Virus record (IMG/VR): IMGVR_UViG_3300029288_000146
Reading direction: 5' to 3' (one strand)
Length of the DNA: 20,000 bases
From: an uncultured virus (IMG/VR IMGVR_UViG_3300029288_000146)
Lineage: Duplodnaviria > Heunggongvirae > Uroviricota > Caudoviricetes
Program-made: the position numbers and the translations under genes
Notes under the pieces: model-generated
Databases searched by the model: none
Told to the model about the DNA's origin: nothing
The model's input: only the letters and a program-made list of their open reading frames with translations
Shown: positions 8,351 to 14,151 of the stretch, in pieces
How positions within the stretch are numbered: position 1 is the stretch's first letter
How the letters are laid out: each line of letters opens with the position of its first letter

Positions 8351-8923
8351 TTAGCTGAAGCTCAGGAGGTTGTACGTCTTGGTCGAACCCGATATCGTGG
8401 GTAGGTAGTAGTACATGACCGCGAAAGTGATGGGTTGGGAATACTTGGAGAGTTCCTGGGCGAACATATCGGGGGCCGAGAGGATGAACCCCGAGAACGC
8501 CCACTTCTGATGGAGCACCCAACAGCGGCTGCGGGTGAATGCCAACCTGCACAACTCTCCCCAGATTTCCCCGTGTCCGCCCTCATCAAGGTCGCGGTCG
8601 GGTAGTTGCGCAGTAACGGTAACGTGCCGGGGCATTTCGGGCGCCCGGAAGTAAAGCGGCTGGCCGGTCGTTGACGTGCGCTCATAGACGCTGGCCGTTG
8701 AGGTTTCAAACTGCGGGGGCTCGCTTAGTGGTAGCTGGGCGAACCAGTTCAGCGCCGTGGCTCCCCCGGAACCACCCACGTCAGTGTTGAGCAGCGCCGC
8801 AGGGTAAGTCGCGTTGAGACCGGTAGAAAAATTCGCGGGTCTGTATGGGGTACAATCCGCGAACGTCGCCGTGGCGGGCGATGCCCCCGTATGATAGGCT
8901 CCGACTTCGACTATCCCGCTCAT
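8351..8923 (-). CDS. Distal tail (Dit-like) protein, 190 aa
   Basis: Position directly after the TMP region, ATGA overlap, size. Function is inferred from gene order only. Confidence 0.5.
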   Translation of the reverse strand: MSGIVEVGAYHTGASPATATFADCTPYRPANFSTGLNATYPAALLNTDVGGSGGATALNWFAQLPLSEPPQFETSTASVYERTSTTGQPLYFRAPEMPRHVTVTAQLPDRDLDEGGHGEIWGELCRLAFTRSRCWVLHQKWAFSGFILSAPDMFAQELSKYSQPITFAVMYYYLPTISGSTKTYNLLSFS

Positions 8924-9468
8924 GCCCGTGCTCCTGATGGTTTGATCATTGGCCGCGCGGTCAACTGGCGGCGGCCGAAGGTGTCGCTGAACGACATCCG
9001 CGTGTTCGTCAGCGTGAAGACATCCTTGAAGGCGTCCTTGAAGTTGTCCACGATCACATGTCCAGGCTTTTCAATGGGCAGGCGCTGTTCGGGTTTGAAC
9101 AGGCTCTGGAGTATCTTGGCCCCGGCCATGACAAAGGGGTTGCCGCCGCTGATAGCCGAGAGGATCGGGGTGAAGCCACCGGCGGCTCCGAAGGTGTCGA
9201 GGCTGCGGTAACTGTCGAGCGGCATGTTGGCGTAACTCAGCAGCATCTGTTCGAGGATGTTTTCCTTGGGCGCGGCCTGCTTGCCCGGCGAGGGTTTCGA
9301 CACGTCGCCGGTATCTGAGGGTGCCGCGAATGTCGCACCAAAGCCCCCGAAGCCCGCCGATACATCAATCGGACGGGTCTTGCCCGTGGGGCTCGCCACC
9401 TTGCCCTTGTACTCGCTGAGCCCTGCCTGATCCAGCCACACCGTTCCCGACGGTTTCGGACCGTCCTT
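8920..9468 (-). CDS. In-frame continuation of the tape measure protein after the TGA at 9469-9471 (ORF track: separate 173 aa from GTG 9441)
   Basis: 9469-8920=549, so the frame is the same and there is no further stop: ...GGT GGT TGA AAG GAC GGT CCG AAA CCG TCG GGA ACG GTG TGG. No well-spaced SD precedes GTG 9441. The sequence (FGAAGGFTPILSAISGGNPFVMAGAKILQSLF) resembles a TMP C-terminus. Confidence 0.65.
   Translation of the reverse strand, partial: KDGPKPSGTVWLDQAGLSEYKGKVASPTGKTRPIDVSAGFGGFGATFAAPSDTGDVSKPSPGKQAAPKENILEQMLLSYANMPLDSYRSLDTFGAAGGFTPILSAISGGNPFVMAGAKILQSLFKPEQRLPIEKPGHVIVDNFKDAFKDVFTLTNTRMSFSDTFGRRQLTARPMIKPSGARA
9433..9465 (-). promoter_or_regulatory. Stem-loop directly 3' of the in-frame TGA; candidate bacterial SECIS / readthrough element
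   Basis: On the minus strand, ACCGU(9454-9450)-loop CGGGA-ACGGU(9444-9440), extendable by an imperfect lower stem. The apical loop begins 19 nt after the UGA and has G at loop position 2. Confidence 0.45.
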
Positions 9469-12400
9469 TCAACCACCGCTCCCGCAGTCGTCATAGAGCG
9501 TGTATTCGTACTGCGCTCCTTGTGCCATCGTTACGGGGGTCGTGGATGGATCGACGGGCAGGTAGTTGGTTCCCCCGCCGGTTGCCACTGCTCCCCCGGT
9601 GAGCGCCCAAGCTGGCAGTTGCCATCCGCCCTTACCGAGCGCGGGGAACATCGAGCGTGTCTGAGTGATTCCCGCCTTGCTGGCATTGCCGCCCACGAGG
9701 CTTGCGGCCTTGTTCTGGATACCGCCCGCAATGGCTCCCGCTACACCAGCCATGGCCGCAGCCGCAGCGGCGCCGATTTCCCCCGCATTGGTGACGTTCA
9801 CCGGTAAGGGTAGGGGAAGGCCACCCCCAGCAGATGCCGCCCAACCGCTGGGGATGGGGTTGTTCGGTGCCAGGGTGCCGCTAGAGGAATCGTAGGGGCC
9901 GAAGTAACCGGTCTTGAGCCAGTCGATGGTCTGGCCTTTGCGCCACGGGGGCAGGCCACCGGACGACCGCCAATCCTTGTAGACATCGCCGGACATTAAC
10001 TTGATATCCAGGTGGTCGCGGTAGACTTCCGCGAGTTGTTCACCCTGCTTGACGAGATCGCCCACCGCGACTTGGAGGTTCCGCAGGTGGTGCATGGCCG
10101 CTACGTTGCCCAGCGCATCGCGTGCCACCAGGGCGCGGCCGCCCCCTGCCGATGCTCCGGAGTCATACTCTTGGAGGATTTCGAGATCGGAGTACGCCAT
10201 TACCGGGGTTCCGGCCGCTGCGGCAATGTCTCCGCCGCCATGGAGTCCCGATGAACGCTTGGCGTAGTATGTCGATGTTACGCGGTTGTTGCCCACGGGC
10301 AGCGGATACCCGATACCAGAAACCGTGTAGCCGCCCTTGGGTGCGGGTCCCCAACCAGCTCCACCCCCAACACCGCCGACATCCGGTATACCACCAGCGC
10401 CAGGTGGTTGAGGCGGCAATCCTAGCCCCGCAATAAAACCGCCGCCAGCCAGTGCCGATGTGAGCCCGGAGATCGCTGATGTGTTGGCTTCCAGCGCCGA
10501 GGTGTTAGCCGAGATGGGATCGTAGGCATCCGGGAGTTTTCCGCGATACTCCGCACCAAAAGCCGTAGCATCGCCGATTCCGAATCCCGTGGCCGCTAGC
10601 CGCTGTGCCGCTGCCAGCATCTCCGGGGTTGCGGTGCCTGATGTAATGGCAGCTCCGAGCAGCGAAGGAATGCCCGCATTGAGTTGCTGCATGGTAGACA
10701 TGAACAGGGGATCGCGCAGGTACTTGCGGTCTTCATAGGGGATGTCCTGCATGAGCCACTGGAGATCGAAGACGCCGCCGATGGTGCGGCCGAATCCGCT
10801 GGTTAGCCCCTGGCGAGCGCTAAACTCCTCAGACTGGAGCTGGCGGAGTTCGTCTGGTTTGAGTCCGCCCTTGCCCATCTGATCCTTGATCTTCTGCCAG
10901 CGCGCGTAGTCAACCTCAAGCCCCTCGATCTGGCCGATGAGGTCATAGGCGCCGCCCAGCCATTTGTTGGGTCCCGCAGCCGCGCCCATGATTGTGGATT
11001 GCGCGCCGATGGTTGATGTAATGGCTCCGGCCGCGCGGTCTAGGGAGGTCATGTAGTCACTCAGCGCACGGGCTGCGGCCTGCTCCTCGGCAGCCATCTT
11101 CGCCAAGCCCTCAGAGGCCAGAATGGCATTCTCTTTGAGTTCGGGCAGGTATGCGGCGTATGCGGTTTGTTCCTCAGCGGAGAGCGACATCACCTCGCGG
11201 GCCTTCTCGATGGCTGCGCGGTATTCGTCCTCCAGGGCCGCGCGCTCTGCGGTTTTATCTGTTTCGACACCGTACCGCTGGTTCATGATGTCCATCCACC
11301 GCGCGGTTTCCTTGCGGGCTTCCGTTGAGCGGGTGATGGAATCCAACTCATCAACCACGGCACGTTGCTGCTTCTCGCGCTCAAACTCCATCGCTCGCTG
11401 CGCGTGCTCTTCCCATAGGGGGCGCTGCTGGGGTGTGAGTTCGGCGACGTTCATGCCCAGTACGGTGCTGATGTATTGATCGATCCACTTTTCGTTGAAC
11501 GACTGCTTGGGGTTGTATCCGGTTTGCGCGGCGAAGGTGTCAAGCAGGCGCGCAGTGTCACCCGATGGCAGAAACTCTCCCTGGAATTTCTCCCATGCGG
11601 TTTTCTGTCCCCCAGGCCCAGCCCCACCACCAGCGGCCTTAGCCATGAGTTCGGCCGCTGCGTTTTCATCCATGATCCCCATCGAGACCAAAGTACCCAG
11701 AGCATCTACGGCAATCCCTGACATCTTGGATACTTCGGTGTTGCCCCGGAGTAACGCACCGGACAACCCGCCGCGATTGAGGTCGAACGGAGTCAGGGAA
11801 CGCATCACATCTACAGCGCCCGGGCCGAGCCAATACGCCCACGCCGTCCGCCGTCCCACACCGGCCTTCGTCTCTTCTGTCTGTTGCCCCAGCCGCTCCT
11901 TGGAGAACTCGACGCGCAAGTCGCGCAGGGCGCCAGCGAGTTCGTCTGCGGCTGTGGATGCGGACAGCAGGGAGTCGGCGTGGGCGGCGACGTAATCAGA
12001 GAACCGCGTGAGGTTGTCCCCGCTGAGTCCGAGGTCGCGCGCCCGCGTTCTCATCACGGTTACGAGGTCTTCCTTCTTGCTGACCTGCCCGCCACCAGCC
12101 AGCGCCGCGAGATCGAGCCCGGCCTTGGCGGAATCCGGGACTACGTGGGCTAGTTGCTTGAGGGCTTCGTTGGAATCCCGCACGGCGTTCGAGTATGCCT
12201 GCCACGCGGTGGTTGCCGCGATGATGACACCCGTAGCGATCATGCTCCCCATGAGGAAGGTCTGGGATTGAGCAGCCGCGCGGGTTGCCGCAGCATGGGC
12301 CTTCTGTGTTTCAGCGAGTGCGCGGGTGGTGCTATCGAGCGTCCGGTTGGCAGTAACTACGGCGTTGATGCGCGCGAGATCGCTCGCCCCCATCCCCCCT

Positions 12401-13464
12401 GCCGCAGCAGAAGCATAAATCGCCTGAGCGCCCGCCACGCCGCCGCCCTCGAAGGCCATGGCTGATTGCATAGCCGGGGTCAGACGTCCCATGGCAATGG
12501 GTACGCGGTTCTGAGCGGCGAACATCCGCTGGGTCAGAGATGCTTCCTGCTCGCCTAGTTGAGCTGCGAGTCCCCAACGCCCTGCTACTTGCGGAGCCAT
12601 GTAGCCGTATCCCGCCCACATACCCATCCCGCCGATGGCCGATGGAGTCAGGACGCTCGCCAGGTCGCCAGCCATGTTCCCGAACTTCTGCGGGCTCACG
12701 ACGCCCAGCGCCTGTCCGGCTTTGAGGATGCTGGTGGTCAGGAGGTCGAAAGCGTGGCCGACATCGCGGACGTACTCATCCACGGCCTCTTGCTTGAACA
12801 CGCGGAACTGCTGGAGTCCAGTGGCTTCGGTTCCGGTGCCGAACCCTTGCATGCGGGTGAAGGACGGGTGCGAGAAGAGCCCCCACACACGGGCTTGCAT
12901 TTCCTGTGTGGATGTCATACCGAAGCGTGAAGTCCCCAATACCTGCCGCGCGTAGGCTTCGTACATGGGGTTCATCTTGATGCTAACGCCGGTCTTTTCG
13001 AGCCCTTCGGTTTCACCTCGCACCAGGAAAGCAGAGAACCGCAACATCGCGTCTTGGATGTTGTCCACAACCCCGGCAATCGCCAGACCGCGCCCGGCTT
13101 CACCCAGCGCGCGGAACTGCTTGAGGTTCATGTCCACGCCCGCAGCGGTTAGGCGCATGGCCTCATAGGCGGCTTCTGCTTGGGTTGCGATGTTCCCCAA
13201 GCCCTCAGCCATCGCCCGGAAGTTGGCGGCGCTCTCGAAGAACGCCTGGCCTTTGACGATACCGATGAGCTGGTTGTAGCGGCTGGTGAGTTCGCCCAGG
13301 CGGTTGACCGCCAGGTCGATCCCCGCGATCATCCCCGCGAACTTGGCGACGTTGTTGAAGCCCTCGACCTTTCCTTGCAGGGCTCCCACGGATGCGTTCG
13401 CGCGCGACATCACCGACTCGAACTGAGTCCCGTCCGCGCGAAGTCTAATCCCTATATCAGCCAT
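9469..13464 (-). CDS. Tape measure protein with C-terminal M23 peptidase-like domain, 1331 aa (1514 aa if the TGA is read through)
   Basis: N-terminus MADIGIRLRADGTQFES; Ala/Gly-rich helical composition; follows the chaperone pair. M23 motifs HGGGDIAAAAGTPV, HL..LQVAVGDLVKQGEQLA and HLD at about 10000-10310. Confidence 0.9.
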   Translation of the reverse strand: MADIGIRLRADGTQFESVMSRANASVGALQGKVEGFNNVAKFAGMIAGIDLAVNRLGELTSRYNQLIGIVKGQAFFESAANFRAMAEGLGNIATQAEAAYEAMRLTAAGVDMNLKQFRALGEAGRGLAIAGVVDNIQDAMLRFSAFLVRGETEGLEKTGVSIKMNPMYEAYARQVLGTSRFGMTSTQEMQARVWGLFSHPSFTRMQGFGTGTEATGLQQFRVFKQEAVDEYVRDVGHAFDLLTTSILKAGQALGVVSPQKFGNMAGDLASVLTPSAIGGMGMWAGYGYMAPQVAGRWGLAAQLGEQEASLTQRMFAAQNRVPIAMGRLTPAMQSAMAFEGGGVAGAQAIYASAAAGGMGASDLARINAVVTANRTLDSTTRALAETQKAHAAATRAAAQSQTFLMGSMIATGVIIAATTAWQAYSNAVRDSNEALKQLAHVVPDSAKAGLDLAALAGGGQVSKKEDLVTVMRTRARDLGLSGDNLTRFSDYVAAHADSLLSASTAADELAGALRDLRVEFSKERLGQQTEETKAGVGRRTAWAYWLGPGAVDVMRSLTPFDLNRGGLSGALLRGNTEVSKMSGIAVDALGTLVSMGIMDENAAAELMAKAAGGGAGPGGQKTAWEKFQGEFLPSGDTARLLDTFAAQTGYNPKQSFNEKWIDQYISTVLGMNVAELTPQQRPLWEEHAQRAMEFEREKQQRAVVDELDSITRSTEARKETARWMDIMNQRYGVETDKTAERAALEDEYRAAIEKAREVMSLSAEEQTAYAAYLPELKENAILASEGLAKMAAEEQAAARALSDYMTSLDRAAGAITSTIGAQSTIMGAAAGPNKWLGGAYDLIGQIEGLEVDYARWQKIKDQMGKGGLKPDELRQLQSEEFSARQGLTSGFGRTIGGVFDLQWLMQDIPYEDRKYLRDPLFMSTMQQLNAGIPSLLGAAITSGTATPEMLAAAQRLAATGFGIGDATAFGAEYRGKLPDAYDPISANTSALEANTSAISGLTSALAGGGFIAGLGLPPQPPGAGGIPDVGGVGGGAGWGPAPKGGYTVSGIGYPLPVGNNRVTSTYYAKRSSGLHGGGDIAAAAGTPVMAYSDLEILQEYDSGASAGGGRALVARDALGNVAAMHHLRNLQVAVGDLVKQGEQLAEVYRDHLDIKLMSGDVYKDWRSSGGLPPWRKGQTIDWLKTGYFGPYDSSSGTLAPNNPIPSGWAASAGGGLPLPLPVNVTNAGEIGAAAAAAMAGVAGAIAGGIQNKAASLVGGNASKAGITQTRSMFPALGKGGWQLPAWALTGGAVATGGGTNYLPVDPSTTPVTMAQGAQYEYTLYDDCGSGG

Positions 13465-13801
13465 GCCGGATGCTCGCCTGCCAACTCATCGCGTACCGCA
13501 CTAGTTCGTCTGTCTCTTCCTGCTTGGCGCGCTCGTAGGCTTCCTCGTCCACGCCTTCAGTGATGGAGTCGATGGCTTCGGAGAGCGACTTGTTGAGGTC
13601 TTTAACCTGCTTCTCGCCAGCAAAGATTCCCTTCTGGTGGAGCTGCATTACCCGGTCTTCAGCAATCGCGTAGCCGAACAACTCCAGCACCAGGGGCCAC
13701 GGAACCTGCCGGTAGACGTAATCGAACCCGACTCCCTGCCACGCCGCAACCTTGGCTATGATGTAGTGGAGCTGGTAGGCGCGGCGTCCACGGCCGGGGG
13801 G
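13457..13801 (-). CDS. Tail assembly chaperone extension (gpT-like part of a gpGT fusion), -1 frame
   Basis: The -1 frame is open from 13840 to the stop at 13457: PGRGRRAYQLHYIIAKVAAWQGVGFDYVYRQVPWPLVLELFGYAIAEDR...; its stop overlaps the TMP start. Confidence 0.75.
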   Translation of the reverse strand, partial: PPGRGRRAYQLHYIIAKVAAWQGVGFDYVYRQVPWPLVLELFGYAIAEDRVMQLHQKGIFAGEKQVKDLNKSLSEAIDSITEGVDEEAYERAKQEETDELVRYAMSWQASIRHG

Positions 13802-14151
13802 CTCTCGCTGCCCTCCTGTTCGCGGATCGCTTTGTAGTGGTCAAGCATGGGCTTGATCTCGTGCTCGAAGATGGCATCCCGCAGGGTCCGGTAGTTGTCG
13901 ATGTCGTCAAACTCATCCGGCCCCTTGCAGATACCCTCAAGTTCGGATTCCGGCATCCTCAGCGTATCCAGAACAAGCTGGCGCATCAGGACGGCCGCAC
14001 CCGCCCGGTTCCCCTGGGTCTCGAAGGCCATGGCCGTCGCCCAGGTCTCGTAACCGAGGTCTCGCATCTGGAATGACCAACGCGAGATCGTGCAGGTGTG
14101 ACCGCCCTTCAGCTTTACGACATACTCAATCTCAGCAGGCTTGTCGCCCAT
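13756..14151 (-). CDS. Tail assembly chaperone (gpG-like), 131 aa
   Basis: Lies between the tail tube and TMP; GAGGT SD; overlapping -1 frame downstream. Confidence 0.75.
   Translation of the reverse strand: MGDKPAEIEYVVKLKGGHTCTISRWSFQMRDLGYETWATAMAFETQGNRAGAAVLMRQLVLDTLRMPESELEGICKGPDEFDDIDNYRTLRDAIFEHEIKPMLDHYKAIREQEGSESPPAVDAAPTSSTTS
13795..13817 (-). promoter_or_regulatory. Candidate -1 frameshift signal: internal SD AGGAGG, 10 nt spacer, heptamer C CCC CCG
   Basis: Minus strand reads CAG GAG GGC AGC GAG AGC CCC CCG. The heptamer at 13801-13795 is in X XXY YYZ phase; AGGAGG is at 13817-13812. Confidence 0.65.

Follow-up and report, generated by a model that had tools for sequence, protein, structure and literature searches.

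In a 20,000-nt stretch of DNA from an uncultured virus of the Caudoviricetes (IMG/VR IMGVR_UViG_3300029288_000146; the whole stretch is called the window below), the gene of the putative tape measure protein (TMP) is interrupted by a single in-frame UGA codon that probably encodes selenocysteine (Sec). All window features described here lie on the (-) strand. The open reading frame (ORF) in front of this codon, defined from the ORF and its translation, comprises 1331 codons (9472..13464; 9469..13464 with the TGA included) and ends in YTLYDDCGSGG (...QYEYTLYDDCGSGG) at the TGA 9471..9469. Beyond the TGA the same frame continues as KDGPKPSGTVWLDQ and stays open for 182 sense codons (8923..9468), encoding a variable linker and then a conserved C-terminal domain, until it is closed by another TGA (8920..8922) that forms an ATGA overlap with the ATG (8923) of the next gene. 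Five codons upstream of the UGA, the TGC codon 9484..9486 specifies Cys1327, which is the sole Cys among all 1514 residues of the read-through frame and forms an invariant column of the TMP alignment A4. TGA is an ordinary stop elsewhere in the window, because 7 of the 16 other listed complete ORFs end in it; with the TMP gene counted, the stops of the 17 complete ORFs are 8 TGA, 6 TAA and 3 TAG. The frame that stays open up to the ATGA overlap, the lone Cys five residues before the UGA and the normal use of TGA as a stop had all been claimed in an earlier note on this DNA, and the ORFs and translations bear out each of them. In addition, run X1, which is probably the source sample, has been independently re-assembled in Logan at a depth of 14.3, and the result was identical to the window over 8900..10100, including the TGA; although assembled contigs and not raw reads were compared, a sequencing error is therefore unlikely.

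The UGA, a Cys partner at a fixed spacing from it and a hairpin in the same register downstream of it are conserved in three lineages. Four DNA loci representing these lineages were compared: the window; L001, a contig of 2.4 kb from a metagenome, with a small protein 38% and a next gene 36% identical to those of the window; L002, an IMG/VR contig encoding the protein P0008; and L006, which shares 94% amino acid identity with L002 and whose record is classed as a provirus. An in-frame TGA was present at the junction in all four loci, followed by 180-238 open codons, and in each of them a Cys codon lies exactly five codons away, giving either Cxxxx[TGA] (...YDD-CGSGG-[TGA]-KDG... in the window, ...TKP-CEGPS-[TGA]-GAP... 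in L002 and ...MKP-CEGPT-[TGA]-GEP... in L006) or [TGA]xxxxC (...GGGGG-[TGA]-EGGSC-LPG... in L001). The partner Cys is the only one among the 365 residues of the L001 frame and one of two in P0008, the TMP of L002. Moreover, the codons that separate the UGA of L001 from its Cys at +5 include no start codon, so that only a ribosome that reads through the UGA can translate this Cys.

The relatives whose gene is uninterrupted carry CxxxxC after the same aromatic-rich stretch in 3/3 cases: ...YKTYG-CETGVC in P0007 and ...FQTYG-CETGSC in P0012, where the motif holds both of the two Cys residues of the protein, and ...YEDSN-CSSGTC in P0010, where it holds two of three. If the UGA is taken as Sec, the motif of the family is [C/U]-x4-[C/U]; L001 has its TGA at the first position of the motif, and the other three loci have theirs at the second (9469..9471 in the window). 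Judged by motif, it is present in 7 of the 9 family members examined (the four TGA loci and the three CxxxxC proteins). We also noticed by eye that the window and P0007 share Y-K-G at +20..+22 when residues are counted without gaps from the second motif position. The earlier note had proposed that homologous TMPs be compared at this column and had named findings that would speak against Sec, namely TGG or another sense codon unrelated to Cys, TAA or TAG in place of TGA, or a change of frame. None of these was seen: the comparison returned TGA with a Cys at spacing 4 in every interrupted locus and Cys-x4-Cys in every relative with sense codons.

The hairpin that the same note had described immediately downstream of the UGA was found as claimed. 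Its upper stem-loop, ACCGU-CGGGA-ACGGU (9440..9454), has a 5-bp stem and a loop that begins 19 nt after the UGA and carries G at its second position. The minimum free energy (MFE) fold of nucleotides +1..+45 after the UGA extends it by a lower stem, GGUCCG/UGGAUC, into an element resembling a selenocysteine insertion sequence (SECIS) at 9429..9462; this lower stem is a prediction only, and it changes the calculated energy from -4.1 kcal/mol for the upper hairpin alone to -11.8 kcal/mol. In L001 the stem GCCUUC/GAAGGC (6 bp) bears the loop CGGGC at 19 nt (-7.5 and -14.6 kcal/mol, respectively), and in L002 the stem CUCAGU(G)/(C)ACUGAG (7 bp) bears the loop GUC at 20 nt (-7.6 and -19.3 kcal/mol), or, drawn with a 6-bp stem, the loop GGUCC at 19 nt. 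L006 has the stem of L002 and the loop top G-GUC-U (GGUCU), the single change from C to U at the top of the hairpin preserving a G:U pair. A competing hairpin, GACGG-UCCGAAA-CCGUC, which begins 5 nt after the UGA within 9429..9468, was observed in the window; the ACCGU arm is common to it and the conserved hairpin. The competing hairpin represents the centroid of the local fold and may be part of a lower stem or an alternative conformer.

The features of the window taken alone are not beyond chance, and their significance comes only via the related loci. Under a loose SECIS rule, 1035 of the 3753 in-frame positions of the long ORFs in the window matched or beat the window hairpin. A MAFFT alignment of the four loci over 48 nt beginning with the UGA was gapless, and columns 17-22 pair with columns 28-33 in 23 of 24 cells. 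Changes on both sides of the pair, that is, compensatory changes, occurred in 5 of the 6 hairpin pairs in this sample of four sequences from three lineages. None of 500 shuffles reached this level of pairing, and when the partner was slid by 1-3 columns the pairing fell to 29-50%. The register is the same in 4/4 loci, the loops beginning 19-20 nt after the UGA. A hairpin equal to or better than the observed one, with its loop 18-21 nt downstream, was found at 4.6%, 1.5% and 2.2% of the in-frame positions in the window, L001 and L002, respectively; as this register was picked after the window had been seen, only L001 and L002 count as tests, and the product of their frequencies is ~3e-4. Such a hairpin followed none of the eight ordinary TGA stops in the window. 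The peptides encoded at the hairpin differ (KPSGTV, CLPGEG and TQWSTE), and conservation of the protein therefore does not explain the pairing. Furthermore, the distance between hairpin and UGA is constant even though the UGA of L001 and that of the window lie five codons apart in the motif, which implies that the structure tracks the codon and not the protein.

The bacterial SECIS (bSECIS) consensus, as given in the legend to Fig. 2 of PMC13188914, has a loop of 3-9 nt, an upper stem of 4-16 bp, a spacing of 16-37 nt and an MFE of at most -7.5 kcal/mol. It also demands that one of the first two nucleotides of the loop be a G and that G or U come next, and the preferred pattern is N1-G-[G|U]-N-N2 with N1 and N2 paired (PMC13188914). 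As given there, the consensus is satisfied by all four hairpins, and the preferred pattern fits L002 (GGUCC) and L006 (GGUCU). The rule is a loose one, and its simple version is passed by 8.2% of in-frame positions.

The 238-aa post-UGA part of L002 is homologous to the C-terminal ends of two TMPs without an interruption, matching residues 944-1075 of the 1083 in P0010 (E 9e-14) and residues 1234-1414 of the 1420 in P0007 (E 3e-11). These matches set in 7 residues past the UGA, whereas a start codon in frame appears only at +35; on these sequence comparisons, the post-UGA part of L002 is a piece of a TMP. When L002 and L006 were compared, the TGA was retained while both flanking codons differed, and the ratio of non-synonymous to synonymous polymorphism (pN/pS) was ~0.2 on either side of the UGA. 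In the 33 start-less codons that follow the UGA the pN/pS was 0.21, and 4 of 6 changes were at third positions; this points towards a coding sequence, but the changes are too few to count. Downstream of its UGA, at 10564..10680 (+), L002 repeats the aromatic module in a form that lacks Cys (WSTESPGAGWEKGYGTKT); this repeat aligns with the WDSDPTGSDYYKTYGCET of P0007, which suggests that the module has been duplicated in L002.

In the window the conserved core of the post-UGA domain spans residues 83-177 of 182 (8938..9222, alignment A1) and includes a Gly-rich hydrophobic stretch, with invariant columns from P83 to R167. The AlphaFold2 (AF2) model of the domain was of low confidence (predicted local distance difference test score, pLDDT, 53.5). 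A 151-nt contig identical to window 8977..9127 was present in run X2, which comes from a different study and is labelled as a groundwater metagenome; it stops short of the UGA.

Taken together, the conserved TGA, the spacing of the Cys and the compensatory hairpin in fixed register support the proposal of the earlier note that a Sec codon is accompanied here by a nearby Cys and a SECIS-like hairpin, and we consider it probable that UGA 9471..9469 is a Sec codon that gives a virion protein its [C/U]x4[C/U] motif. The full product would then be a TMP of ~1514 residues composed of an M23-bearing body, the Cys-x4-Sec motif, the linker and the C-terminal domain, and the C-x4-U pair would be placed between the muralytic body and the C-terminal domain with its Gly-rich hydrophobic stretch. 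As the ribosome nears the UGA, the SelB.GTP.Sec-tRNA(Sec) complex of the host would bind the stem-loop that starts ~14 nt downstream, and SelB would deliver Sec in competition with release factor 2 (RF2). Termination at the UGA would yield the short form of 1331 aa, whereas Sec insertion would yield the long form of ~1514 aa. The first of these steps are those of established bacterial Sec insertion; that the residue inserted is Sec rather than another, and that the host possesses selABCD, would be required in addition. In phage tails, the tip complex contains this end of the TMP, and the TMP chains are presumed to form a trimer. At the tail tip, the C/U pair could be redox-active or bind a metal, and it might act as a selenylsulfide latch or as a metal site shared between TMP chains. 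The redox switch and the control of the isoform ratio suggested in the earlier note are likewise inferences. We tentatively extend this to a wider proposal, which we hold to be possible: that the phage family carries Sec at the tip of its TMP, that a complete tail requires a Sec-competent host supplied with selenium, that the selenylsulfide or metal latch is opened on infection, and that Sec has taken the place of either Cys of the motif independently in different lineages.

Several observations weigh against the interpretation of the UGA as a Sec codon. The tRNA-Sec, selB and selD genes were not found in the two phage records searched (G001 and G002). The upper hairpin of the window is weak by its calculated energy, its 81-nt local fold is no better than that of shuffled sequences (z = +1.0), there was no Rfam SECIS match, and the 18-21 nt register was, as described above, chosen after the fact. 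P0004 and P0009 end 7, and not 4, residues past their single Cys. Moreover, MAFFT with X in place of the TGA does not reproducibly put the TGA into the Cys column, and for L002 both MAFFT and BLAST pair the CxxxxC of P0007 with the Cys-free module after the UGA. The apparent duplication of the aromatic module in L002 would explain why these alignments are unstable. The equivalence of Cys and UGA rests on the shared spacing and on the pattern of the motif and its flanks.

The database matches of the post-UGA part also speak for separate proteins. In an exhaustive HMMER search with a query spanning the junction (69 matches at E <= 0.001), the post-UGA part matched only the window's own 173-aa gene call and six separate proteins of 99-156 aa (P0005, P0006, P0011, P0013, P0016 and P0068), whereas the long relatives matched in the M23 region only; this pattern speaks for a pair of separate genes. 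However, because gene callers split at any TGA, proteins recorded on their own do not discriminate between the readings. The link between the family of small proteins in the window and the C-termini of fused TMPs is collinear but weak (E 0.0013-0.03; hmmsearch E 0.02-0.03, hhalign E 0.008 and 0.0013). Plausible internal starts exist as well. The gene caller begins the 173-aa protein at GTG 9439..9441 (+10), which lies in the 3' arm of the hairpin, and a possible internal start, GTG 9397..9399 (+24), has AAGGG 4 nt upstream; in L001 an ATG at +22 is preceded by AAGG. The earlier note had stated that the downstream part lacks a good Shine-Dalgarno (SD) sequence, which is only partly right in view of the AAGGG in front of the GTG at +24. 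A separately made small protein may coexist with the read-through product.

These observations are the substance of a two-gene explanation, in which the TMP of 1331 aa ends at the UGA and a protein of 150-173 aa, made from its own start (GTG 9441 or GTG 9399), resembles a small tail protein that follows the TMP and is fused to it in other phages. In favour of it, each of the six relatives of the downstream part, its own gene call not counted, is on record as a protein by itself, in-frame starts in the window and in L001 follow SD-like words, and same-frame neighbours parted by a TGA are common in the GC-rich DNA of the window; four TMPs end 4-7 residues past a Cys, so that the Cys motif could itself be C-terminal, and a single-step nonsense mutation from TGY to TGA would account for both the frame and the codon. 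We nevertheless regard two genes as unlikely, since this explanation gives no reason why the stop should fall exactly on one of two Cys positions in three lineages or why L001 should retain an untranslatable Cys codon at +5, and the compensatory hairpin keeps a fixed distance from the UGA while the candidate starts vary (+10/+24, +22 and +35 codons). The uninformative nature of free-standing records applies here too. Programmed read-through of the UGA without selenium, by a near-cognate tRNA such as that for Trp and with the hairpin as a stimulator that fixes the ratio of short to long TMP, would explain the conserved TGA, the in-frame continuation and the register of the hairpin and would dispense with the Sec machinery of the host. 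It does not explain why the UGA sits at a Cys position with a partner at spacing 4, where relatives with sense codons have Cys; furthermore, A or G follows the UGA, which is not the leakiest context, and the loops conform to the G[G|U] rule of the SelB type. We thus give selenium-free read-through only a small probability.

That a prophage is decaying and has acquired a nonsense mutation, or that the TGA is an error of sequencing or assembly, could be suspected from the provirus classification of the L006 record and from the comparison of contigs in place of raw reads. This is very improbable given the TGA in 4/4 loci from three lineages, long frames that contain no other in-frame stops, a pN/pS of ~0.2 on both sides of the UGA in the comparison of L002 with L006, and the identical re-assembly at a depth of 14.3. 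Reassignment of TGA across the whole genome or in the late genes (code 4/25-type or a recoded phage) can be given next to no weight: nothing more than the single in-frame TGA suggests it, and it is refuted by stop usage, with TGA ending 7/16 of the other listed complete ORFs; in addition, the frame of 1514 codons has only one in-frame TGA, and no tRNA gene was detected in the window.

Read as a Sec codon, the UGA places the TMP gene close to bacterial selenoprotein genes, whose type example is E. coli fdhF with its bSECIS stem-loop bound by SelB. Like them, it has an in-frame UGA, a partner Cys close by, and a stem-loop within the coding sequence directly 3' of the codon, whose small apical loop opens with G[G|U] at a distance of 19-20 nt from the UGA; homologues with Cys are recognised by motif. 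It differs from them in being phage-borne and in encoding a structural protein of the virion instead of a cellular oxidoreductase, and its C-x4-U or U-x4-C spacing departs from the common CxxU/UxxC. Recoding as such is familiar from phages: the -1 frameshift of gpG/gpGT and the UGA read-through of Qbeta A1 likewise produce a short product and a C-terminally extended one in a set ratio, and a downstream RNA structure is involved in many cases of programmed recoding. In contrast to those systems, the stop codon here is at a Cys position, is followed by a SelB-type hairpin and lies within the tape measure itself. Viral UGA codons read as Sec by the host are known from molluscum contagiosum and fowlpox viruses, in their homologues of glutathione peroxidase (GPx). 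The latter were captured from cells as enzymes and have a eukaryotic SECIS in the 3' untranslated region or in the ORF, whereas the present case would combine a bacterial-type SECIS with a phage structural gene that has no cellular counterpart.

Sec insertion is known from cellular genes and from a few eukaryotic viruses. Our literature searches found no known TMP with a recoded stop, and phrase searches found no phage selenoprotein in print. Judged by titles, the papers found on viral selenoproteins all dealt with viruses of eukaryotes, and, judged by title and abstract, none of the papers found linked selenocysteine to the tape measure. The words 'phage' and 'virus' were absent from the main texts of PMC13188914, PMC9312934 and PMC13326102, and, again as far as the main text goes, neither the 2026 review of the prokaryotic selenoproteome nor the BSepDB paper mentions either word. 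If the wider proposal is true, no selenoprotein would have been described before from a bacterial virus, nor any structural, non-enzymatic role of Sec in a virion. If the UGA is a Sec codon, the TMP would add a selenoprotein family without an assigned enzymatic role. A virion protein would then rely on a host trait present in a minority of bacteria, a new type of host-range and nutrient (selenium) dependence. Gene callers would systematically break such genes into a 'TMP' and a 'hypothetical small protein', and phage selenoproteins might be more widespread, as is hinted by the L025 small protein, described below, that has a TGA at a Cys of YGCETGCCGH.

The related loci came from few of the searches made. 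The IMG/VR locus scan with A4, which gave L002, also returned L003 and L004, which were dropped on inspection as unrelated M23 loci, and L007, found alongside L006, was likewise dropped as unrelated. Scans of IMG/VR with the window small protein, A2, A3 and A6 and scans of genome_contigs yielded no relative, and the scan of metagenome_contigs yielded L001 only; blastn against phage GenBank gave no match, and word-index protein searches with the window small protein, the junction region and the P0007 C-terminus gave only self matches. The only hint at a host clade for this phage group is that a metagenome-assembled genome (MAG) of the Kiritimatiellia is the source of P0071 and P0072, two NCBI proteins in the cluster of the TMP P0004.

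The window is a phage tail module. Upstream of the TMP gene, PHROGs matches identified tail-completion/Neck1, tail-terminator and scaffold genes, and between these and the TMP gene lies a pair resembling tail assembly chaperones (13457..14151), assigned by synteny, for which no family match was found. It consists of a 131-aa ORF (14151..13756) and a -1-frame ORF (13840..13457) with 127 open codons, which overlaps the 3' end of the former and finishes at the start of the TMP gene. This layout is that of a putative gpG/gpGT-type frameshift arrangement. The TMP gene itself is the longest tail gene, directly 3' of the chaperone-like -1-overlap pair and in front of the tail-tip genes. No curated TMP family of Pfam or PHROGs matched it, the only matches being Peptidase_M23 and peptidase PHROGs, so the TMP label rests on synteny, size and relatives, the protein being homologous along its length to the long M23-bearing proteins P0004, P0007, P0008, P0009, P0010 and P0012. 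P0009 and the short protein P0016 are encoded on contigs of equal length (21,104 bp), which are probably one and the same. The Peptidase M23 domain occupies residues 1075-1148 (10021..10242; Pfam PF01551, E 1.3e-08, score 35.4 bits against a cut-off of 28.7), and PHROG metallo-endopeptidase matches were also present. In its great length, its position after a -1-overlap chaperone pair, the M23-type peptidase motif towards the C-terminus and the hydrophobic Gly-rich stretch near the end, the protein resembles siphophage TMPs with a C-terminal muralytic domain, such as Pb2 of phage T5.

The TMP fragment of L001 (2-553 (+)) starts with GLGLPPQP, a word that also occurs in the window TMP before the M23 domain. 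By eye, the HGG.D.AA metallopeptidase motif is missing between this word and the PW...D.W word, and the M23 domain therefore seems to have been lost or replaced in L001. The next tail gene of the window (8351..8923), which the earlier note had called Dit-like, encodes 190 aa and is 36% identical to its L001 equivalent; it had no match in Pfam or PHROGs, and its AF2 model was unusable (pLDDT 38.2).

A second candidate was encountered outside the TMP. A DNA pattern search of IMG/VR for YGCETGxC returned 20 loci, none of which encodes a TMP. In 11 of the 20 the pattern belongs to a family of small (~67-90 aa) phage proteins of the form '...V.H..YGCETGCCGH.VE...F.F.HP...', for which no Pfam match was found among the four members scanned. 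In the member from the IMG/VR locus L025 (2803-3051 (-)) the first Cys of the 'CC' is replaced by TGA, where the other 10 members have TGC or TGT, and the hairpin CGUCG-AGGUCAA-CGACG follows with its loop beginning 16 nt after the UGA. This single sequence is possibly a second, unrelated phage Sec candidate, or it may represent a nonsense mutation.

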